Origin: Caldimicrobium thiodismutans
GTDB taxonomy: Bacteria > Desulfobacterota > Thermodesulfobacteria > Thermodesulfobacteriales > Thermodesulfobacteriaceae
NCBI RefSeq assembly: GCF_001548275.1
Contig: NZ_AP014945.1
Span: forward strand, 390,001 to 422,000
Reading direction: 5' to 3'
DNA length: 32,000 bases
The stretch's first letter is position 1; each line of letters starts with the position of its first letter. Positions 3,550 through 24,272 of the stretch are shown here, one piece after another. A program made the translations under genes and the position numbers. The notes under the pieces were generated by a model. The model ran no database searches, was not told the DNA's origin, and was given only the letters and a program-made list of their open reading frames with translations.

Positions 3550-4330
3550 AAAGAATTTGTTGAAAAAGAGGAAAGTCCCCTGATTTAGGAAGGCCTATTT
3601 TTTTATTAAGGTTTCCTTTAATTTTTAGAAGATTTAAACCTGAAGTAAGGTCAATATCCTCTATAAGTTCCTCTCCATCTTTTAATTCTTCAAGAATACT
3701 GGCCTCAGTTATAAGGAGGGTTTTTAAATCTTTAGCCTCTTGCCAGTTTAGGAAGGGTAAAAGAGTTTGGAGCGCTCTTATGCGTTTTTCTATTTCCCAT
3801 AGCTCCTCTACTTCTATTTCTTGTAAGGCCCCTTCAGAAGACAAATCCTCCATGGTCTCATCTTTAAAGAGAATCTTTTCTTCAAAAAATTCCTGCCATT
3901 TGGTGATAAAGTTCTTTAAAGAGAAGGCGACCTCTAAAAGGTTTTCATCTAACTCTTCCGCTATGCTTAAAAGTAAATAGGCCTTTTCAATTGGGGAGTT
4001 AAAGGCCTTCTTCTTGGGGAAAAGGGGATAGGCCTCTTCAAAGAGGTCTTGATGAAGATGATAAAGTCTTAAGGCATCAGGAGTTCTGAGATAAAGAGCA
4101 AGATTTTGCATCTCCTCAAGCACTCTTGATAAAAGCTCTTCAGATAACTGGATCTTCTCCGAAAAATTCAGGAATTTTATTTTTGATAAGAGCTGAGGGA
4201 ATCTTTTCTGAATGCGCTCCCTGGTTTTTATAAGTTTTATCAGAAAGAATTCTTCTACATGGTCAAGGCTTTTCAGAATCTTGGGTGGATAAAAAAGGCT
4301 TTGAGGGTAGAGAAAGACTTTAAGTTTCAT
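3539..4330 (-). CDS. Hypothetical acidic helical protein
   Basis: A 263-aa ORF in an operon-like arrangement, overlapping the next gene by 11 nt. I recognise no family. Confidence 0.65.
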   Translation of the reverse strand: MKLKVFLYPQSLFYPPKILKSLDHVEEFFLIKLIKTRERIQKRFPQLLSKIKFLNFSEKIQLSEELLSRVLEEMQNLALYLRTPDALRLYHLHQDLFEEAYPLFPKKKAFNSPIEKAYLLLSIAEELDENLLEVAFSLKNFITKWQEFFEEKILFKDETMEDLSSEGALQEIEVEELWEIEKRIRALQTLLPFLNWQEAKDLKTLLITEASILEELKDGEELIEDIDLTSGLNLLKIKGNLNKKIGLPKSGDFPLFQQILFVA

Positions 4331-4338
4331 AGAGAAAA

Positions 4339-4941
4339 CTATGCAAAGATTTTAAGTAAAAGGGCCTTAATGTATTCAAGTTGCCTTTCGTATTCTTGAT
4401 CAAGGCGATCTTTAATTTTTCTCCATTCCTCTTGAAATTGAGGATGTGCTTCTGGCGAGAGCTTTACCTCTGTCCCCATTTGTTGAGAAACTGCCTTTTC
4501 TAAGGCATTCAGGCTTGCAGAGAATCTTCTTACCATCTCCTGATAGAGAGCCTCCTTTTGAAAGAAATATTCTTGAAGCATTTTCTGCGTCTCCTCTAAT
4601 AATTTATCCACTTGAGGAATCTGATTTAAAAAGTCCTTGAGAGTTTTCAGAAGTTCCTGGCTATCCTTTAAGTGGTATTCTTCCTTAGGTAGAGTGAGAT
4701 TTTTTAAAAGAGCCTCCAGCACAACCTTCAAAACTTTTTTCTTATGCCTTTCAGGAACCTTAGCTAAGAAGGTTTTAACTTCGCCCTTAAAATCCTGAGT
4801 CTCCCTTTTTAGATATTTTCCAACCAAAGACAATGCCCTTTCCTTTAATCTCTCCCATTCCAGCTCTTCAGGGGAGGCCTTACCTATCTTTTCAGCCTTT
4901 TCCAAAGCGATCTCTAAAGCACTCTTTATAATATCACCCAT
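4339..4941 (-). CDS. Hypothetical coiled-coil protein
   Basis: A 200-aa ORF. GGAGG (plus-strand CCTCC at 4947-4951) lies 5 nt upstream of the ATG. The sequence is K/E-rich and helical, with no family recognised. Confidence 0.7.
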   Translation of the reverse strand: MGDIIKSALEIALEKAEKIGKASPEELEWERLKERALSLVGKYLKRETQDFKGEVKTFLAKVPERHKKKVLKVVLEALLKNLTLPKEEYHLKDSQELLKTLKDFLNQIPQVDKLLEETQKMLQEYFFQKEALYQEMVRRFSASLNALEKAVSQQMGTEVKLSPEAHPQFQEEWRKIKDRLDQEYERQLEYIKALLLKIFA

Positions 4942-4985: not shown

Positions 4986-5013
4986 AAGATACTCATTTTA
5001 AAAGATTTGTCAA
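4986..5013 (-). promoter_or_regulatory. Putative sigma70-type promoter for the 4941..1062 operon
   Basis: Read on the minus strand: TTGACA (5013-5008), a 16-nt spacer, then TATCTT (4991-4986). The -35 box lies 5 nt from the left terminus of repeat copy 1. Confidence 0.45.
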
Positions 5014-5018
5014 TTCTA

Positions 5019-5298
5019 TGTATGCGTCCTTATCTTTCCTGCTTACGCAGGCAGGTGAGAATTAATATAGTAGGGATAAACCTATGTGTTTGCCCATTAT
5101 GTGTTCCTCGTAATGCCTCATTTAATTTTCTAAAGGAAATTATTTTACTTTCCCCTCCTTTTTATGATCAATTTTTTCCCGATAATAATTCCCTTTTTTC
5201 TATAAATATGCTCTCTCAAGCATTTTCTGATAACTCCTTATCTTTCTGCAAAGCTCCTTTACCTTTCCACCTATTCTTTCCTTGAAATAAGCTTTGTG
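5019..5298 (+). repeat. Intergenic mosaic element, copy 1 (long and degenerate)
   Basis: It starts TGTATGCGTCCTTATCTTT. It contains a degenerate B hairpin (GTAGGGATAAACCTATGTGTTTGCCC, 5071-5096), a CT-rich tail (CTTTACCTTTCCACCTATTCTTTCCTTGAAATAA) and a truncated right end. Confidence 0.7.
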
Positions 5299-5453
5299 AA
5301 AGAACTAAGCTCTTAAATTCAAGATGGGCGAAATAGATAGTTTTTTCGTGAAGGTTCAAGAGAGGAGCTGAGATTTTTTATATGAGGCAACGATAAATTT
5401 CGAATAGATTTTTAATGAGGCAATTCGTCCTTTGCATTATTGGGGCAGATATT

Positions 5454-7742: not shown

Positions 7743-8126
7743 TTAACGATACTTTCTAATAACTGCAATAACTACCCCGAAGACCTCTCCATCTCTTTCC
7801 TGAGAGAGAATAAGGGGTTGATATTGAGGATGGGCAGGTTTAAGAAGAATTTTTCCCTTTTCGCGAAAAAAATACTTCATGGTCCATTCATCTTCAATCC
7901 TTACAACAACAATGTCATTATTCTTAGGGGTTAGAGATCTATCCACTAAAACATAATCTCCGGGGAGGATACCAGCTTCTAACATAGATTCTCCAACTAC
8001 CCGAATAAGAAAAGTGGAGGAGGGATTGGAAATGAGCCACTCCTCCATACTAATGCTCTCTAAAAGGGTATCTTCAGATTGAGAGGGAAAGCCTGCTGAG
8101 ATGTATCCGAGAAAGAGTATCTCCAA
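7743..8126 (-). CDS. UmuD-like S24 peptidase (LexA C-terminal domain only)
   Basis: Alignable by eye to E. coli UmuD: an Ala-Gly cleavage motif (ISA|GFPS), the catalytic Ser in GESM, the Lys in TMKYF, and a C-terminal FGVVIAVIRK. The start is uncertain: TTG at 8126, only 6 nt after the ahcY stop, with no SD. Confidence 0.85.
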   Translation of the reverse strand: MEILFLGYISAGFPSQSEDTLLESISMEEWLISNPSSTFLIRVVGESMLEAGILPGDYVLVDRSLTPKNNDIVVVRIEDEWTMKYFFREKGKILLKPAHPQYQPLILSQERDGEVFGVVIAVIRKYR

Positions 8127-8132
8127 GGTAGA

Positions 8133-9401
<1,269 letters not shown>

Positions 9402-10565: not shown

Positions 10566-10601
10566 TTTTTAGCCCTCCTTCCACAAAATTCTTGAAAAAC
10601 A

Positions 10602-10629
10602 AATTTACTATAAATTTTTTTATTATCAA
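10602..10629 (-). promoter_or_regulatory. Putative promoter of the metK-ahcY-umuD-like-polY-NTF2-spoU gene string
   Basis: Read on the minus strand: TTGATA (10629-10624), a 16-nt spacer, then TAAATT (10607-10602). The -35 box lies 6 nt from the left terminus of repeat copy 2. Confidence 0.45.
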
Positions 10630-10635
10630 CTCAAC

Positions 10636-10848
10636 TGTATGCGTCCATATCTTTTAGGACTCTATAGGATTTTTTCTACCACTTAGTTGTTGGAAAAGGA
10701 ACCTGTATTTTGTAAAGTCAAACCTCTGTATTTGCCCTCTTTTGGCAAATCTATGTGTTTGCCTGTTAATTAAAATATCCTTCTAAATCTAATTTAGCAC
10801 ATCTCTTAAACATCCAATGTTTAAGAGAGCTTTTTTAGTGCATTATGC
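10636..10848 (+). repeat. Intergenic mosaic element, copy 2 (right boundary uncertain)
   Basis: It starts TGTATGCGTCCATATCTTTTAGGAC. The A module resembles copy 6 (..TATAGGATTTTTTCTACCACT). The B region is at 10730-10763 (ATTTGCC..GGCAAATCTATGTGTTTGCC). Clear homology ends near 10763. A possible degenerate right end is CATTATGCCAAAAAA at 10841-10855. Confidence 0.65.
10802..10836 (+). terminator. Rho-independent-type terminator on the plus strand, with no plus-strand ORF upstream
   Basis: An 11-12 bp perfect stem (CTCTTAAACAT at 10803-10813 pairing with ATGTTTAAGAG at 10817-10827), loop CCA, then AGC and TTTTTT (10831-10836). The minus-strand reading has no downstream T-tract. Confidence 0.6.
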
Positions 10849-10954
10849 CAAAAAATCTAAGATTTGTTCAATCAGGAGACCTGGTTTAAATTTTAAAAAG
10901 AATTAAGTAAGAGTCACAAATTGAAAGATATGCAATTTATAATGAGAGGGATTT

Positions 10955-10973
10955 CCCCCTCATTAAGAGGGGG
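10955..10973 (-). terminator. GC-rich stem-loop downstream of rubrerythrin (candidate terminator)
   Basis: CCCCCTC-ATTAA-GAGGGGG lies about 30 nt after the rbr stop. An alternative pairing with GAGAGGG (10944-10950) is possible. No clear U-tract follows on the minus strand. Confidence 0.35.
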
Positions 10974-11002
10974 CAGTATGTTTATCAAAGAAACTTGAAA
11001 AG

Positions 11003-11532: not shown

Positions 11533-11560
11533 ATTATAAAAAGAAAATTATTTTTGTCAA
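11533..11560 (-). promoter_or_regulatory. Consensus sigma70-type promoter of rubrerythrin
   Basis: Read on the minus strand: perfect TTGACA (11560-11555), a 16-nt spacer, then perfect TATAAT (11538-11533). The -35 box lies 5 nt from the left terminus of repeat copy 3. Confidence 0.75.
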
Positions 11561-11565
11561 TAGTT

Positions 11566-11816
11566 TGTATGCAGCCATATCTTTTGAGACTTAAAATTTA
11601 CCTCTTTTGGTAGACAAATTGGATTTTTTTAGTAGGGGCAAAACTATGTGTTTGCCCCTTTGTGGCGTTTGCCTGTTATATGTTCCTTTAAGTTATTGGG
11701 CAGACAGACAAAGATTTGGCAGACACGCAAGGGCCTCCCTCTACTCTCCCCTTTCACCTCTCCCCTTTCACCTCTTATCACCCTTTATTTTTCTTGAAAT
11801 AATCAGAACCTATGCG
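11566..11816 (+). repeat. Intergenic mosaic element, copy 3
   Basis: It starts TGTATGCAGCCATATCTTTTGAGAC. The A module is ~88% identical to copy 4 over ~66 nt. The B hairpin is GGGGCAAA..TTTGCCCC (11635-11658), with a second GTTTGCC at 11667-11673. It also has a GGCAGACACGCAAGG module, a CT-rich tail with a perfect 14-nt tandem duplication (11746-11773), and the right end CTTGAAATAATCAGAACCTATGCG. Confidence 0.85.
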
Positions 11817-11904
11817 AAAAGACCACTTTTTCCAAAATAATCTGATAAATCTGACAAAGGAATTCTATACTTTTCAACTAAAACTTGTAAATTTTTTGCT
11901 TCTC

Positions 11905-12654
11905 TTATAATCCTTCTTCTCTATCAGGGACATCAGTGTAAAAGGTTATCTCAAGACTTTTGCAAAAGTTCTTTGCCTCACGATCAAGTATAGGAGAAAT
12001 AATTATCTTTCTTGTGACTTTTTTCCCTTCTTTTTTCTCAAAAAACTTTACCTTTCTCTCAAAAAGCAAAACATCTCCAGGACTAACGGAAGATTTAATC
12101 TCAGCTACAATAAGCTCACCATCTCTAATAATAAGGTCAATTTCAACCCTTTTTCCAGGAAAACCTTCAAAGACCTCACCTTCTAAATCAGTTGTTTCAT
12201 AATGTTCTACCTTAACCCCAAAGGTTTCCTCAAGAAGCCCTTTTACTGCATTGCGAAAGGTTTTTTCTGATTTAATTCCCCATCTTGCCCCGAGGGCACC
12301 AATCTGCACATCCTGTCTCTTTCTTAAGGCAAGGATTTCTTCCATCAGGATTTTATTGCCTTGAGAGAGTTCTTCAAGCTTCTTTGAATGCTCTTTCAGT
12401 ATCTGAGAATGTTCCTCAAGCCTCTTTGAATGTTCTTCCCATCTTTTTTCACTCTCAATTCTTAGGTTCTTAATCTCCTCTAAAAGGGCTTTAATCTCTT
12501 CTTCAGTAGTTTTTTTGTCTGCAAAATTTTCTTTGAAAAGACTTGCTACATAATCCTTAAGAAGGGGATCTTCCTTTAAAAGCTCGGGGAGATCCCGAAT
12601 TAACATTTCCTTTAAAGCTACTTTGGATATGATACTTTTTTTAGCCCTTTGCAT
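11905..12654 (-). CDS. DUF3782-type protein: N-terminal coiled coil + C-terminal PD-(D/E)XK nuclease-like domain
   Basis: 249 aa. It has heptad-like repeats (EEHSKRLEEHSQILKEHSKKLEEL) and a C-terminal D...E-x-K signature (VEIDLIIRDGELIVAEIKSS). The family assignment is from memory of similar multi-copy proteins in thermophiles. Confidence 0.75.
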   Translation of the reverse strand: MQRAKKSIISKVALKEMLIRDLPELLKEDPLLKDYVASLFKENFADKKTTEEEIKALLEEIKNLRIESEKRWEEHSKRLEEHSQILKEHSKKLEELSQGNKILMEEILALRKRQDVQIGALGARWGIKSEKTFRNAVKGLLEETFGVKVEHYETTDLEGEVFEGFPGKRVEIDLIIRDGELIVAEIKSSVSPGDVLLFERKVKFFEKKEGKKVTRKIIISPILDREAKNFCKSLEITFYTDVPDREEGL

Positions 12655-12679
12655 AAAAAATTCCCCCCATTAATTCCTA

Positions 12680-12707
12680 AACTTAAAAGAAAAAGGAAAA
12701 AAAACAA
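12680..12707 (-). promoter_or_regulatory. Weak putative promoter of the DUF3782 gene
   Basis: Read on the minus strand: TTGTTT (12707-12702), a 16-nt spacer, then TAAGTT (12685-12680). The geometry relative to repeat copy 4 matches the other copies (6 nt offset), but both hexamers are poor. Confidence 0.3.
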
Positions 12708-12713
12708 GAGGGT

Positions 12714-12982
12714 TGTATAAGTCCATATCTTTCAAGATTTAAAATTTACCTCTTTTGGTAGATAAATTGGATTTTTTTTATCTTAAACTATAAAACCTTC
12801 CCTGTATAAATATTCTAAAACCTTTGGTAGGGATGAATGATTGTTTATCTCCCTGTCTATCCCAGGCAGATACATTCGACTCCAGTCGAATAATTTTAAT
12901 GGGGCAGACTCGTAAGGACTTCCCATACTCTCCCATCTCACCTTTTACCACCATTTTTCTTGTAAGGATATGAACTTATGCA
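12714..12982 (+). repeat. Intergenic mosaic element, copy 4 (best-preserved terminal inverted repeats)
   Basis: The left end TGTATAAGTCCATATCTTT matches the reverse complement of the right end, TGCATAAGTTCATATCCTT, at 16 of 19 positions. It has a degenerate B module (12828-12853), a private 8-bp hairpin ATTCGACT/AGTCGAAT (12874-12891), and a GGCAGACTCGTAAGG module shared only with copy 3. Confidence 0.88.
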
Positions 12983-13779: not shown

Positions 13780-16700
13780 ATGAGATTCAAAAGGCTCTCA
13801 GGGGTTAATCCCTCTTTTTTAGGGTATTATTTAGGGGCAGAGAAAGTGCCTGATCTTGATGGATATACTTTGATTGCCCTTTTTCCCAATCAAGAAAGTG
13901 CCAAGGACTTTTTATCTGTTTACAAGGCCTTTTCGCAGAATAGGGCATCTTTTTATCCTGCCTTAGGGATCCCTCCCTTTGCAGAAGTCTTTACCCTCAA
14001 TGAAGAAGAAAGGGAACGCCTTAAGGTCCTGTGGGAGCTTCCTACTTTAAAGGTAATTGCCCTTGAGATCAAAAGTTTTCTCAGAAGAACCATTTCCAGA
14101 GAACAGCTTAAGCTAAATTATCTGTATCTTTTGCCAGGTGAAAAGATTGATCGTGAGACCTTGATTGAAGACATAGTAAGACTTGGTTATGAACGGGTAG
14201 GGGTGGTTAGAAGTAAAGGAGAGTTTACCTCTAAGGGAGCAGTTCTTGATCTCTTTTCTCCTCAGAATGATTATCCCACAAGAATTGAATTTTTTGGAGA
14301 TGAGGTTATAAGCCTTAAAGCCTTTGATCCTGAAACTCAGAGGAGGCTTGGATATCTTGAGGAATTAAGTATCCTTCCCGCAAGGGAACTTTTTTTTCCA
14401 AAGGATTCCCAGCCTCTTTATGAAAAAATCTTAAGCTATAAGGATAAACTTTCTGAAAAAAGAATATCCGAACTTTTGCAAATGGTAGAAAATAAAATAA
14501 TCCTTGAAAATCCTGACTTTCTTCTTCCCCTCCTTTGGGAAGATTTGAAACTTTTGCCTGAAAATCTCGGAGAAAAGATCTGTTTTGTCCTCTTTGAAAG
14601 AGAAAAACTCTTAAAAGAGATGGAAGTTTTTTGGGATAGAATCTATAATTCTGCCAAGAAGGCTAAGGAGAAAGAAAGGCTATTAGTGGCTGAGGAAAAA
14701 CTTTATGCAACTATTGAAGAAGTAACGGCCTTTTTTGATAGATATCCAACTCTTGAGGCCTTTGAGCTTCCTCTGGCTGACAGAGATACCCTTTTATTTC
14801 CTTTGCAGAAATATGAAATTTCCCGGGAAGCTTCCCGGCTTGAACAGGCCTTTAATTTTCTTAAAGAACACCTTTCTGCAGGAAGAGAAATTTTTTTATT
14901 TGTGCAAGATGAAAAAAATTCCAGGGCTATTCTTGATGGTTTAAGATACAGGGGTATTGAGGATTTTGATCATTTGAGCATTCTTACAGGAGACCTCCAA
15001 GATGGTTTCTTTTTTCCAGATAAAGGACTTGTCCTTACCTCAGATTTTGAACTCTTTGGAAAGAGAATTTTTAAAAAAGAGGAAAAACAAGCCTTGAAAC
15101 GGGTCAGGGGCTACTTTAGAAAGTTTGAGGACCTCAAACCCGGTGATTATGTGGTGCATAAGCTTCATGGTATAGGAAGGTTTCAGGGATTGATCTCACT
15201 TAAAGTGGATGGTTTTGAGGGGGAGTTTCTTCAGATTGAATATGAAGGGGGAGACAAACTTTATGTGCCTGTGACCAAACTTGAAGAACTCTATCCCTAT
15301 GTGGGAGTGGAAGAAAAGATTCCCCAATTAGATAAACTGGGGAAAAAGACCTTTCTTAAAAAGAGAAAGGAAGTAGAAAAGAAATTAACTGAGGTGGTTG
15401 AAGAAATCCTGAGGCTCTATGCTGAAAGAAGAACCCTTAAGGGATTTTCTATTCCTGTGGATAATCTCTCCTATGCAGAATTTTCCCAGACCTTCCCCTA
15501 TGAAGAGACCCCGGATCAGCTCTCAGCTATTGAAGAAGTCCTGGAGGATCTTCAAAGTTCAAAGCCAATGGAAAGGCTTGTGGTAGGAGATGTAGGCTTT
15601 GGAAAAACGGAGGTAGCTCTGAGGGCCATTTTTGTTACTGCAAGGGCAGGAAAACAAGTAGCTTGCCTTACTCCCACAACTCTTCTTGCTGAACAACATT
15701 ACCGCAATTTTAAAGAAAGACTGGATTCCTTTGGTATAAAAGTGGGGATTCTCTCACGGTTAAGAAGTGAAGGAGAACAAAGGGCTGTTCTCAAAGCCTT
15801 GCAAGAAGGTGAGATTCAGGTAGTAGTTGGGACCCATAGACTTCTTTCTAAGGATGTCCAGTTCAAAGACCTTGGACTTCTTGTAATTGATGAAGAGCAC
15901 CGCTTTGGAGTAAGGCAAAAGGAGCGTTTAAAACAACTTAAAAAGGCTGTAAAGGTTCTATCTCTTTCAGCTACTCCTATTCCCAGGAGCCTTCAATTAA
16001 GCCTTCTTGGAATTTTTGATCTTTCTTTGATTGAAACACCTCCTTTGGGAAGAAAAAGTATTAAGACCTTTCTTACCCCCTTTGATCCTGAAGTCATAAA
16101 AGCAGGCCTTGAGGAGGAGCTTTCAAGAGGAGGTCAGGTTTATTTCGTTCATCCACGCATTCAGGGTCTTACAAGCCTTGCAAAATTTCTTGAGAAACTT
16201 ATGCCCTCAGCCCATATTGAGATTGTGCACGGTCAGATGGATTCATCTCAACTTGAAAGGGCTATCTTTAATTTTTTAGAGAGGAAGGTAGATATCCTTG
16301 TCTGCACCCCTATCATTGGGAGTGGAATTGATATTCCTTCAGCTAATACTATTTTTATCAATCGGGCAGACATGTTTGGACTTGCGGATATTTATCAACT
16401 TAGAGGAAGGGTAGGGCGGGGACAGGAAACAGCCTATTGTTATCTTCTTGTGCCAGATCTAAAAGGTTTAACAGAAAATGCTCAGAAGAGATTAAAGGCC
16501 CTTATGAAGTTTGTTGAACTTGGCTCAGGTTTTAAACTCTCTTTAAGTGATCTAAAGATAAGAGGTGCAGGGGAGCTTCTCGGAATAAATCAATCAGGAC
16601 ACATCAATAAAGTGGGCTATGAACTCTATCTGGAACTCCTTGAGAACACCATTCGTAGTTTAAAGGGGGAGGAGATTGAGGATTGGGAACCTGAGGTTAA

Positions 16701-17935: not shown

Positions 17936-20085
17936 AGAAGCCTCTCAAGTTGAGTATATTTAAGATGCAAAATAGTTGGCCCTTTACTGATAAAATTGAC
18001 CTTAATTTTTTCTCCCATTACTTCAAGAACCTCTCCTTCTCCAAAATGAGGGTGTTTAACAAAGTCTCCGATTTTAAAAGAGCTTGTTGAGGAAAGCTCA
18101 GTTGAATAATGAGTATTCATATAGTTTTCTGTAACAGGTTTGATATGGGAGCTTTTTTCCTCAGGGGTAGTATAATTGACCTCCTCATATAGGGTCTTTG
18201 GAAGCTCGGTTAAAAATCTGGAGGGTTTAGCAAAGGTTTTCCCTTCTCCGGGCAAATAAACCATAAGGGGGGAGAGAAGAAAGAGTTTTTCTCTGGCTCT
18301 GGTTACCGCAACATAGAAGAGCCTTCTTTCCTCTTCAAGGTCATCGGTATTTTTTAGACTATATAGCGAGGGAAATCTACCTTCAATTAAAGAGAGGATA
18401 AAGACTGTATGCCATTCCAAGCCTTTGGCAGAATGAATGGTAGATAAAATAAGGGGATCCTCATCTAAGGTCTCACCCTCTAATTCAGTAATTTCAAGGG
18501 GTTCAAGAAGGAGATCAGATACAAACTCATCAAGGCTTTTGTATTTAAGGACTAAGGAAAAGAGCCCCTCTAAATCTTTTACTCTTCTATGATAGTCCTC
18601 AGAATAGATGCGTTGAAATAGGGGTTCATAAAAATACCAGATTTTTTGCAAAATCTCGGAGGGGCTTTCTTCTTCATAGGGCTTTATGGTAGTATATAAT
18701 TCAAGCCATCTTTTGAGCTCGTGAGAAGGGCTAAGTCCCAGAATTCGATTTAATGAGGTGGGTAAAGCTTCTCTTTTCAGGGTCTGAATAATTTTTTCTG
18801 CAGTGCGAGGGCCAATTCCCTCCATAAGAAGAAGCACCCGGTTCCAGGAAAGAAAATCCCGAGGATTTAATATAATTTTTAAAAAGGCAAGGAGATCCTT
18901 TATATGAGCAGACTCAAGAAGTTTTAAGCCTCCATATTTAACAAAGGGTATGCCCCGTTTAGCAAGTTCCACCTCAAGTTCGTAAGAGTGATAGGCTGAG
19001 CGAAATAAAACCGCTATTTGAGAGAGTTTAATTCCCTTTTCTCTCAGTTCTAAAATCTTATCAACCACAAATTTGCTTGTTTCTGCTTCATCCTTGGCTC
19101 TGAAAAGCACAGGTTTTGCTCCCTCTTTTTTAAGGGTAAAGAGGGTTTTGGTATATTTTATTTTAGAATTAGCAATAATGACATTTGCAAGATCAAGAAT
19201 AGGTTGGGTGCTTCTATAATTTTGTTCAAGCTTGATAATTTTGGTTTGGGGGAAAATTTTAGGGAAATCAAAAATATTCCGATAATTAGCTCCTCTGAAC
19301 CGATAGATACTTTGTGAATCATCCCCTACAACCATAACATTTTGATGGGTAGAGGCCATATATTTTATAATCTCGCCTTGTAGGGTATTAGTGTCCTGAT
19401 ACTCATCCACCATAATGAAATGAAATCTTTTTCCCATCTCATCTCTGATTTGAGGATAATTTTTTAATATCTCAAGCCAATTAAGCAGTAAATCGTCGTA
19501 ATCCATAAGTTGGTGTTCTTTTTTGTAAATCTTGTATTCTACAAAAAGCCTTTGAATCTCAGGTAAGAACTCTAAGAATTGTGGATATTCCGAGTCAAGA
19601 AGTTCTTCCAGGGATTTTTCCTGATTAAGGGTCTTGCTGTATAAGTTTGCTAAGGTATCCTTTTTAGGAAACCTTTTTTTATTATCACTTAAGCCAAGGC
19701 TTGTTTTAAGAAGATTAAAGAGGTCTTCGGCATCGGTTCTATCTAAGAGAGTAAAGTTTGGGCTGTAACCTATCAGAGTTCCATATTGTCTGAGCATGGT
19801 ATGGCAGAGGGAGTGAAAGGTCCCACCTGTAACTTTATGAAAGTCCCTTTTTAAAAGGAGGCTTGCCCTTTCAATCATTTCTTTGGCTGCTCTTCGGGTA
19901 AAGGTAAGAAGAAGAATTTTTTCCGGAGGGATTCCTTTTTCAACTAAATGAGCCATTCGGCAAACCAGGGTTTTCGTCTTCCCTGAGCCAGCTCCTGCAA
20001 TGACAAGGAGGGGTCCATAAAGGGTCTCTACAGCTTCTCTCTGGGCTGGATTTAAATCTTGAAGATAATTCTTGGATTCCCTCAT
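17932..20085 (-). CDS. uvrD: UvrD/PcrA-type superfamily-1 DNA helicase
   Basis: 717 aa with the motifs AGAGSGKT, MVDEYQDTN, VGDDSQSIYRFRGA, QNYRS, TIHSAKGLEW and YVAVTRAR, plus a C-terminal Tudor-like tail (GDFVKHPHFGEGEV). Confidence 0.95.
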   Translation of the reverse strand: MRESKNYLQDLNPAQREAVETLYGPLLVIAGAGSGKTKTLVCRMAHLVEKGIPPEKILLLTFTRRAAKEMIERASLLLKRDFHKVTGGTFHSLCHTMLRQYGTLIGYSPNFTLLDRTDAEDLFNLLKTSLGLSDNKKRFPKKDTLANLYSKTLNQEKSLEELLDSEYPQFLEFLPEIQRLFVEYKIYKKEHQLMDYDDLLLNWLEILKNYPQIRDEMGKRFHFIMVDEYQDTNTLQGEIIKYMASTHQNVMVVGDDSQSIYRFRGANYRNIFDFPKIFPQTKIIKLEQNYRSTQPILDLANVIIANSKIKYTKTLFTLKKEGAKPVLFRAKDEAETSKFVVDKILELREKGIKLSQIAVLFRSAYHSYELEVELAKRGIPFVKYGGLKLLESAHIKDLLAFLKIILNPRDFLSWNRVLLLMEGIGPRTAEKIIQTLKREALPTSLNRILGLSPSHELKRWLELYTTIKPYEEESPSEILQKIWYFYEPLFQRIYSEDYHRRVKDLEGLFSLVLKYKSLDEFVSDLLLEPLEITELEGETLDEDPLILSTIHSAKGLEWHTVFILSLIEGRFPSLYSLKNTDDLEEERRLFYVAVTRAREKLFLLSPLMVYLPGEGKTFAKPSRFLTELPKTLYEEVNYTTPEEKSSHIKPVTENYMNTHYSTELSSTSSFKIGDFVKHPHFGEGEVLEVMGEKIKVNFISKGPTILHLKYTQLERLL

Positions 20086-20093
20086 AGTTTAAA

Positions 20094-20121
20094 ATTATAA
20101 TCTTAAACTTTTACTTTCCAA
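20094..20121 (-). promoter_or_regulatory. Putative uvrD promoter (implies a leaderless or near-leaderless mRNA)
   Basis: Read on the minus strand: TTGGAA (20121-20116), a 16-nt spacer, then perfect TATAAT (20099-20094). Only 8 nt separate the -10 from the ATG at 20085, and there is no SD. The -35 box lies 7 nt from the left terminus of repeat copy 5. Confidence 0.5.
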
Positions 20122-20128
20122 GAGCAAA

Positions 20129-20244
20129 TGTATGTGTCCATATCTTTATTTATGATGAAATGTATATGGTTTCACATTATTTCTTCCTTTCACCTCTTAC
20201 CTCTTCCAACCTTTCTTTTTCTTGTAAGGATCTGAACTTATGCA
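20129..20244 (+). repeat. Intergenic mosaic element, copy 5 (minimal version, lacks the B hairpin)
   Basis: TGTATGTGTCCATATCTTT ... CTTTCACCTCTTACCTCTTCC ... TTTTTCTTGTAAGGATCTGAACTTATGCA. The ends match as inverted repeats at 14 of 20 positions. Confidence 0.85.
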
Positions 20245-20371: not shown

Positions 20372-20902
20372 ATGAAGTGTCCAGGGCAGGATTGGAGATA
20401 CTGGAGAGAGGATGCCATTTTTGAAGTTAAATGTCCCTATTGTGGAGCCTCAATTGAATTCTTTAAGGATGATACTGTTAGAAAGTGTTCACAATGTAAA
20501 AAGGCTGTTCCCAATCCACGGATGGATTTTGGGTGTGCCGCTTATTGTAAATATGCTGAGGTATGTTTAGGAGAGCTTCCTCCAGAGCTTATTCGTGAAA
20601 AGGCTAATCTTTTGAAGACGCGCCTTTTGACCCTTCTTCAGGAACTTTTGGACAAAGAGAGTTTTTCCCGCATAGAAAAAGGGGCTGAACTTCTGGAAGA
20701 AGAACTTAGGTCCAAAGAGCAATCTCCAGGCACAAAGCTTTTACTCTTTTATTTTTATTTTTTAACACCTGATCAGAGGGAAGAGCTTTATAAAAAAGCT
20801 AATCTTCCCGAGACCCTCTGGGAGGAGATACGCCACATGTTAAAAGGTTTACCAGCTGATTTAACTCAAGATGCCTTGATAGAAACATTAATAAAGGACT
20901 AA
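20372..20902 (+). CDS. Cys-rich zinc-ribbon protein with a helical C-terminal domain (function unknown)
   Basis: 176 aa with N-terminal CPxxxx..CPYCG..CSQCK..C..C..C cysteine clusters. A strong SD lies 8 nt upstream. Confidence 0.75.
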   Translation: MKCPGQDWRYWREDAIFEVKCPYCGASIEFFKDDTVRKCSQCKKAVPNPRMDFGCAAYCKYAEVCLGELPPELIREKANLLKTRLLTLLQELLDKESFSRIEKGAELLEEELRSKEQSPGTKLLLFYFYFLTPDQREELYKKANLPETLWEEIRHMLKGLPADLTQDALIETLIKD

Positions 20903-24128: not shown

Positions 24129-24272
24129 TGTGTAGGCCCATATCTTTTGAGACTTATGAGGATTTTTACTACTACTTTTATTGCTTGCCTTTGCAGATTT
24201 ATGTAGGGGCAAACCTATGTGTTTGCCCTCTTACAACCCTTCCTTTTTCTTGTAAGGATCTGAACTTATGCA
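24129..24272 (+). repeat. Intergenic mosaic element, copy 6 (compact A-B-C version)
   Basis: TGTGTAGGCCCATATCTTTTGAGAC ... perfect B hairpin GGGCAAAC-CTATGT-GTTTGCCC (24207-24228) ... CTTACAA-N13-TTGTAAG stem ... GGATCTGAACTTATGCA. Confidence 0.88.

Follow-up and report, generated by a model that had tools for sequence, protein, structure and literature searches.

What places a repeated element at the same short distance from the promoters of six different genes? The question is raised by a 32,000-nt stretch of the Caldimicrobium thiodismutans genome (NZ_AP014945.1, positions 390,001 to 422,000; hereafter the window, with coordinates counted from its first base), in which six copies of an intergenic element each end close to the -35 box of a minus-strand promoter or promoter-like hexamer pair. 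We report that these repeats are copies of a mosaic, non-coding MITE (miniature inverted-repeat transposable element), 116-269 nt long and descended from an IS481-like (rve/DDE) insertion sequence (IS) of the Thermodesulfobacteriaceae. Taken as one statement with the proposal that the MITE would insert selectively, in one orientation, at about -40, the upstream edge of the core promoter, we give this reading a probability of roughly 50%.

Six element copies share one layout

Aligned with one another, the six intergenic regions show a set of modules, read along the minus strand: an A-end (TGCATAAGTTCAGATCCTTACAAGAAAAAG), a purine-rich stretch, hairpin D (GGGCAAAC-ACATAG-GTTTGCCC), an E module and, nearest the promoter, an F-end, which is the most conserved part of the element across copies. 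Modules are present, absent or duplicated depending on the copy, which makes the element a mosaic. The A-end and the F-end, the latter read inward (TGTATAAGTCCATATCTTT-CAAGA), form imperfect terminal inverted repeats of 24 nt; both ends are found in four of the six copies (copies 3 to 6, 116-269 nt), and copies 1 and 2 carry the F-end only. A scan of the window with the 19-nt motif AAAGATATGGACGCATACA returned five matches at three or fewer mismatches, all on the minus strand, where none is expected by chance. A profile derived from the copies brought out the sixth (24129, copy 6), and a profile search of both strands of the window revealed no F-end beyond these six.

Copy 1: 5019-5100, minus strand; F-end 5019-5041, hairpin D 5074-5095; far boundary uncertain, with a degenerate A-like stretch near 5280-5305
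Copy 2: 10636-10765, minus strand; F-end 10636-10660, an E-like module and two D hairpins; A-end undetectable and far boundary uncertain
Copy 3: 11566-11817, 252 nt, minus strand; F-end of right-inverted-repeat (IRR) type 11566-11590, A-end of left-inverted-repeat (IRL) type 11791-11817, purine-rich stretch, hairpin D 11636-11657
Copy 4: 12714-12982, 269 nt, minus strand; best-preserved terminal inverted repeats, 12714-12732 against 12964-12982, 84% complementary over 19 nt
Copy 5: 20129-20244, 116 nt, minus strand; between the divergent uvrD and a gene starting at 20372, F-end toward uvrD
Copy 6: 24129-24272, 144 nt, minus strand; hairpin D 24207-24228, A-end 96% identical to that of copy 5

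On the 3' side of all six F-ends, on reading and on recomputation, stand a linker of 5-7 nt, a TTGNNN hexamer, 16 nt and a TANNNT hexamer. An earlier note on this DNA had described this fixed geometry, named the flanking genes and observed that the spacers are not homologous between copies, and on all three counts we agree with it. The pairs are given below with the evidence for each; L016 and L017 are loci of a relative at 84% identity (syntenic from lysM to ahcY), L018 is a further uvrD locus, and L021 comes from a Caldimicrobium metagenome-assembled genome (MAG; syntenic from lysM to rbr).

4986-5013, minus strand: promoter-like pair of the operon starting at 4941 (copy 1), TTGACA-16-TATCTT at 5013-4986, linker 5 nt, 10/12 consensus matches; from geometry and a consensus scan
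10602-10629, minus strand: metK promoter (copy 2), TTGATA-16-TAAATT at 10629-10602, linker 6 nt, 9/12; host-owned, from conservation in relatives
11533-11560, minus strand: rbr promoter (copy 3), TTGACA-16-TATAAT at 11560-11533, linker 5 nt, 12/12; host-owned, from consensus match and conservation in relatives
12680-12707, minus strand: promoter-like pair of the DUF3782/PDDEXK gene (copy 4), TTGTTT-16-TAAGTT at 12707-12680, linker 6 nt, 6/12, weak; L016 has TTGATG-17-TATTTT at the same offset
20094-20121, minus strand: uvrD promoter (copy 5), TTGGAA-16-TATAAT at 20121-20094, linker 7 nt from the F-end, 10/12; conserved in L016, L017, L018 and L021
24095-24122, minus strand: promoter of the lysM-NlpC/P60 gene (copy 6), TTGACT-16-TATAAA at 24122-24095, linker 6 nt, 10/12; host-owned, conserved in L016 and L021

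Five of the pairs are good (9-12 of 12 consensus matches) and the DUF3782 pair is weak. Their -10 boxes lie about 9-45 nt ahead of start codons, most of which have a Shine-Dalgarno sequence. An independent consensus promoter scan lists four of the six; it demands T as the last base of the -10 and therefore misses the lysM pair (TATAAA). The arrangement TTGN3-N16-TAN3T at an offset of 5-7 nt follows 0.16% of window positions, so that six of six is not a chance outcome. Only seven intergenic gaps in the window exceed 40 nt, and six of these carry the element. All six copies lie on one chromosomal strand. In the one divergent gap (copy 5), the F-end alone abuts a -35 box, the A-end standing about 60 nt from the -35-like box of the other gene, and the spacing between A-end and upstream gene ranges over 15-158 nt across copies.

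With the start site placed 7 nt downstream of the -10, a prediction that we use throughout, the F-end spans about -40 to -58, within the zone of UP elements and class I activator sites (about -40 to -60) and in keeping with the -42 to -60 first proposed, and the core of this end, AAAGATATGG, falls at about -49 to -58. A single orientation relative to the downstream gene, which we also find in six of six, had been assigned odds of about 1/64; that value stands for an orientation fixed beforehand, and the two-sided value is 1/32.

Four of the promoters are host features older than the element

Promoter-like hexamer pairs show no excess over shuffled sequence in scans of this AT-rich DNA (37% G+C), so evidence that any pair is a real promoter must come from conservation in relatives. 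Homologues of MetK and UvrD assign the window to the Thermodesulfobacteriaceae; its UvrD is 91% and 84% identical to that of two relatives and about 75% identical to the best hits in Caldimicrobium (76% for L021). At rbr, ACT(A/C)TTGACAA-AATAATTTT----TATAAT with its 16-nt spacer is kept in the window, in L016/L017 and in L021, where the whole gap between the creatininase gene and rbr measures 106 nt and is element-free; the TTGACA of rbr thus predates the insertion, which answers the check on element-free orthologous promoters that the earlier note had proposed. At lysM, TTGACT/TATAAA is kept in L016 (16-nt spacer) and in the element-free L021 (17-nt spacer, 71-nt gap), and TTTTTTT-CTC-TTGACT in L021 compares with CCTTTTTT[element]ACAGCC-TTGACT in the window. 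The uvrD promoter, CTTGGAAAGT..AGTT.A.G.TTATAAT, is kept in the window, L016, L017 and L018, and L021 has TTGGAA-16-TATATT; its -10 ends 8 nt ahead of the ATG with no Shine-Dalgarno sequence in between (20083-20099), an arrangement kept in four genomes, and the uvrD mRNA is probably leaderless. At metK, TTGNNN-16-TAAATT is kept in L016 and in a further metK locus, L023, and the pair is also present in Thermodesulfobacterium TA1, T. hveragerdense and a MAG, all element-free and with alaS upstream. At metK, TTG-16-TAAATT is conserved in five genomes that lack the element.

This comparison shows that at rbr, lysM, uvrD and metK the -35, the -10 and their spacing (16 nt in the window) are host features older than the element; the earlier note had already assigned the -10 boxes to the host genes. 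Conservation in relatives, unlike consensus scans, marks these pairs as real promoters. Absence of the element from L016 and L021 sites was judged by gap length together with a lack of inverted-repeat matches. We tried to prove empty sites through contiguity of the flanks and rejected this approach, as neutral intergenic DNA is saturated between the window and L016 or L021 and the promoters alone align.

These promoters bear directly on the idea that the element itself carries promoter parts, as an outward or hybrid promoter with a -35, or acts as a terminator/insulator-plus-promoter cassette. There is precedent for the former: IS481 influences flanking transcription (PMC6161684), acting via its own Pout/Pin promoters or a -35 within the inverted repeat, and outward promoters, or -35 boxes within the inverted repeat, are likewise known from many other IS (PMC6161684; PMC9208149). 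On contig L019, which bears a decayed relative of the element described below, an IRR-like end and its flank read TTGTAA-16-TAATTT (578-605), about 40 nt before the next ATG, a hybrid-promoter-like arrangement unlike the window geometry. In the window, however, 5-7 nt separate the -35 from the terminus, the linkers of different copies lack homology, and identical -35 boxes stand in element-free orthologous promoters, which means that the element does not supply the -35. The cassette version would need a sense-strand hairpin followed by a T-tract, which the element lacks; hairpin D is instead followed on the minus (sense) strand by an A-run (TACTAAAAAAA), sense-strand RNA folds have z-scores of -0.6 and -1.9 with no Rfam matches, and a scan finds terminator-like sites only on the plus strand of copy 2 and none on the sense strand of any element. 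With rbr also having a 3' hairpin of its own, the terminator/insulator cassette put forward in the earlier note finds no support, and we consider either form of this explanation highly improbable. The same note had proposed that the element "supplies or targets" the -35 region: supply is refuted by the element-free relatives, and targeting survives as our preferred reading. Its further idea of a binding platform for a global regulator is neither favoured nor contradicted by our results.

Two related candidates were also rejected. A structured RNA, small RNA or terminator does not agree with the missing Rfam and tRNA matches, with folds whose z-scores range from -0.6 to -2.5 or with the absence of a sense-strand terminator, and a -35 inside the inverted repeat (a TGGACT-type hexamer) or a junction promoter does not fit the spacing.

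A MITE descended from an IS481-like insertion sequence

Relatives of the element were sought with the pattern of its E-F junction. Among 185,579 species genomes, the scan found two true relatives, both in Thermodesulfobacteriaceae MAGs (L001 and L004); the remaining matches, seven in unrelated organisms, comprising the rest of the genome scan and all of a metagenome scan, are chance. In both L001 and L004 the F-end lies about 45 nt beyond a C-terminal transposase remnant (ending in ERFNKRLMEYLIWYNGERPHFGLKNKP and a stop). A protein search with the transposase fragments then led to an N-terminal remnant, P0242, on contig L019, where an A-type end (TGCATAAGTTCCATAATTTTTTAGA) stands 50 nt ahead of the transposase ATG. 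A composite of the fragments from these three decayed copies matches the IS481-family model NF033577 at 49.6 bits (E 3.8e-13), below its 224-bit cut-off, the IS3 model at 30.3 bits (2.4e-7) and Pfam rve_3 at 2.7e-4. The NF033577 score falls far under the curated cut-off because the catalytic core is missing, and we accordingly use the label "IS481-like". The remnants carry NG..ERFN(R/K) followed by YN..RPH, which we take to be a motif of such transposases.

All ten ends from the window can be aligned to the L019 IRL and to the IRR seen in L001/L004, and the 14 ends together fit one consensus, TGTATAAGTCCATATCTTTTnAGA. This shows the promoter-side F-end to be the right inverted repeat (IRR, TGTATAAGTCCATATCTTT..., starting TGT; its core is also written AAAGATATGGAC) and the far A-end to be the left one (IRL, TGCATAAGTTC..., starting TGC). 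The "left terminus" of the earlier note is this right inverted repeat of an IS481-like IS, an identity that had been missed. No transposase remnant is present in the window, the two open reading frames overlapping elements have no Pfam matches, and the window yields no Rfam or tRNA match. The element is a MITE-like deletion derivative, and the host gene downstream is read in the direction of the former transposase. A free-standing palindrome of REP/BIME type was rejected as an identity, as hairpin D is confined to elements and found there in a single orientation.

Beside the decayed IS copy of L004 we observe tandem CRISPR-repeat-like units (GTTGAAACCTGCCCTGGTTCTCAAGGGATTGC...; 48-450), some of them nearly spacerless.

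Proposed targeted insertion compared with survival in tolerant gaps

In element-free relatives, the dispensable DNA upstream of the -35 ranges from about 35 nt (lysM) to 140 nt (rbr in L016). If insertion were uniform, the odds that all six copies landed within 7 nt would be of order 1e-7 by a rough hand calculation from gap lengths; together with the asymmetry in the divergent gap and the variable IRL distance, these odds favour targeted insertion. The MITE would often land just downstream of a T-tract (copies 3, 5 and 6; compare the empty lysM site of L021), with the IRR always pointing into the promoter and the former transposase direction running with the gene. A landing at about -40 would spare genes and core promoters and so offer a safe haven, displacing the former -40 to -60 DNA and bringing the IRR core to about -49 to -58. 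Each further insertion there would shift the older copies upstream, and such stacking would lead both to the mosaic structure and to the best preservation of the end next to the -35.

A passive origin of the same pattern has to be weighed against this proposal: few gaps would tolerate an insertion, the shared orientation would reflect a replication-strand bias, and the constant distance would follow from deletion of dispensable DNA. The scarcity of long gaps in 32 kb, the mostly minus-strand genes and the single chromosomal strand of all six copies are what this account would lead one to see. Yet element-free gaps offer tolerant DNA upstream of the -35, as measured above; the uniform-insertion odds are small; deletions halting exactly at a transposon terminus would not be expected six times; and the other end of the element is found at variable distances from the upstream gene. 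We regard survivorship of this kind as unlikely.

Insertions in relatives and possible selective retention

Related genomes show the element at the same sites with differing interiors. L016 has both element ends at the DUF3782 site and a diverged F-end at metK, and these two F-ends share a genome-specific variant, AAAATCCnnTGGAC. At uvrD, L018 carries a short copy of about 65 nt, L021 reads ...GCAAACTTATACA-CTTTC-TTGGAA, and a remnant in L016 reads CTTACA-TGCCC-TTGGAA. The linker is 5-7 nt at every one of these diverged copies (metK, DUF3782 and the uvrD remnant in L016; uvrD in L018 and L021). Internal modules vary by genome, with L016 and L021 carrying an unrelated REP-like repeat there. Shared sites and a 5-7 nt linker combined with differing interiors point to concerted evolution or to repeated insertion at the same position.

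The REP-like intergenic repeat just mentioned, ACGCAGGCTGAAGGTCTTGCGGCTACC, is found with a partner hairpin in both orientations in L016, L017 and L021, often in the same intergenic regions as the element, and is absent from the window. In L016 it occupies the following positions.

4082-4128, 8043-8117, 9084-9204, 16494-16529 and 18829-18872 of L016, both orientations: REP-like repeat

Occupied sites also invite an explanation by exaptation, in which MITEs landed loosely in intergenic DNA and only copies with the IRR at -40 to -60 were kept, the IRR then working like an UP element or being bound by a regulator, either of the host or derived from a transposase, and placing rbr, uvrD, metK, lysM and others under common control. 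With the predicted start sites, the IRR core AAAGATATGG falls where a distal UP subsite or a class I activator site would lie, which agrees with such a role, as do the occupation of three sites across several genomes and the strong conservation of the F-end among copies; at uvrD in L021, the outermost ACTTATACA persists 5 nt from TTGGAA in a gap that is otherwise unalignable, with UvrD 76% identical. On the other hand, orthologous F-ends are only about 70% identical, against 90-100% for the adjoining promoter and 5' UTR, and their variants follow the genome and not the site. The rbr and lysM genes of L021 have the same core promoter without any element, and random insertion followed by selection leaves unexplained why the window holds no copies or relics at other distances. 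We also know of no regulator for the IRR, which we count against exaptation. Retention of this kind, the chief rival of targeted insertion, is possible, and we think it improbable.

Several points weigh against targeted insertion as well. It rests on six independent sites; as these share one strand, orientation with respect to the gene is inseparable from orientation with respect to replication, and the transcription start sites at the six promoters are those predicted from the hexamers. The uvrD, metK and DUF3782 sites are occupied in several genomes, for which selective retention could give the same picture. A search with the composite transposase fragments found two short remnants and no full-length or intact parent transposase; L001, L004 and L019 are all decayed, and none of these IS copies has a TTG-16-TAnnnT pair at a distance of 5-7 nt. 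In L016, a possible short and decayed copy stands 88 nt from the -35 of rbr. Visual comparison and alignment of copies 3 to 6 revealed no consistent flanking direct repeat of at least 3 nt, the sole candidate for a target-site duplication being a shifted TTGCT at copy 5. Finally, the A-ends of copies 5 and 6 are 96% identical, including 11 nt past TGCA, and their F-ends about 79% identical; a likeness limited to the A-end may reflect recombination instead of recent transposition. The case for copy 6 as a proven recent insertion is weakened for the same reason.

Two further ideas about the junction were examined. Reading the linker as a target duplication, as in ISAba32, was rejected, the linker not being repeated at the other end, and mimicry of the target by the inverted repeat (TGTCAA versus TGTATA) amounts to 4/10 matches only.

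Targeted insertion as preferred here could be taken one step further, to a bacterial DDE transposon family that would recognise occupied sigma-70-type promoters, for instance through RNA polymerase, sigma or bent DNA at the promoter's upstream edge, and integrate at about -40 in one orientation. We offer this tentatively and rather doubt it. It would be a prokaryotic counterpart of Ty3/Tf1, with repeated hits in different lineages stacking copies of which the youngest would lie beside the -35, a picture that we hold to be equally doubtful. If the 5-7 nt rule were true genome-wide, the family would offer a clear natural example of bacterial transposition directed to promoters in one orientation; one could learn from it how promoter architecture is read by a DDE transposase and how mobile DNA rewires or buffers the upstream regions of many promoters at once. 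If the rule failed genome-wide, the finding would shrink to an ordinary new MITE family of an IS481-like element. For annotation, most long intergenic regions in this Thermodesulfobacteriaceae genome would be read as MITEs atop short conserved promoters with 16-nt spacers.

Relation to known systems

MITEs derived from IS, effects of IS481 on neighbouring genes and IS that insert beside XerCD sites are all already known. Among bacterial MITEs of this origin, the Correia elements of Neisseria and the RUP and BOX elements of Streptococcus pneumoniae resemble the present family in being short, non-coding, multi-copy and intergenic, in sharing terminal repeats with a transposase-bearing IS, in their mosaic modules and in a potential effect on neighbour expression. 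We know of no fixed distance and orientation to host -35 boxes in the Correia, RUP or BOX families. Correia elements bring promoter parts of their own and duplicate TA on insertion, whereas the present family shows no visible duplication and adjoins promoters of the host. To our knowledge, no MITE family with its IRR 5-7 nt from a pre-existing -35 at every copy has been described.

The likeness to IS481 of Bordetella pertussis lies in the transposase remnants, which score best on the IS481 model, and in repeats starting TGT/TGC. In the IS481 family, inverted repeats begin 5'-TGT and a short target duplication is made; IS481 itself targets NCTAGN. It differs in that the element end described here has no -35 and adjoins an existing one, and in that only decayed transposase genes were found.

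Closer in geometry are IS of the ISAba32 group (IS1202 family), which place one defined end 5 bp from XerCD sites (bioRxiv 10.1101/2022.12.17.520857). As with the element in the window, IS of this subgroup are repeatedly found in a fixed orientation with a defined end about 5 bp away from a functional DNA site that proteins bind. Its transposase is of another family, however, and its target is xrs/dif and not a promoter; there the end beside the site is the IRL and the target duplication forms the 5-bp linker, whereas here the IRR abuts and no duplication is seen.

Integration at the upstream edge of a promoter as a safe haven is a concept shared with eukaryotic elements: Ty3 integrates where Pol III starts transcription, Tf1 at Pol II promoters and mPing upstream of genes. 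These belong to another kingdom and use other enzymes, and their targeting has been demonstrated experimentally via tethering factors, where ours is deduced from six sites. UP elements and class I sites of sigma-70 promoters, for their part, occupy the span held here by the IRR (about -40 to -58), with the A-rich core in the position of the distal UP subsite. The sequence in question derives from the end of a transposon, and its conservation between orthologous sites is only about 70%.

Neighbouring features

Copies 3 and 4 (11566-12982), in the same orientation, bracket the DUF3782/PDDEXK_10 gene (11905-12654). This gene is present in L016/L017 and absent from L021, where rbr directly follows the creatininase gene, and from another locus, L020. 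It may be a passenger in a composite unit whose limits are the copy 4 IRL and the copy 3 IRR. Just upstream of the A-end of copy 3 lies TTTACA-18-TAGAAT (11862-11891, minus strand, 10/12), which would transcribe through the element toward rbr.

Upstream of metK (10566-11002), gene order differs between lineages, with rbr next to metK in the window and in L016 and a divergent alaS in Thermodesulfobacterium (L010/L012/L014). The breakpoint coincides with the element-bearing gap, and the repeats may mark rearrangement junctions.

The gap of copy 1 contains a second imperfect inverted-repeat pair of about 33 nt (CGTAATGCCTCATTTAA...; 5109-5141 and 5396-5427), with no other copies in the window, which may be a different, nested MITE.

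Directly past the rbr stop codon, a G/C-rich hairpin (CCCCCTC...GAGGGGG, 10940-10973) without a T-tract is kept in L016 and may be the real 3' end structure of rbr.

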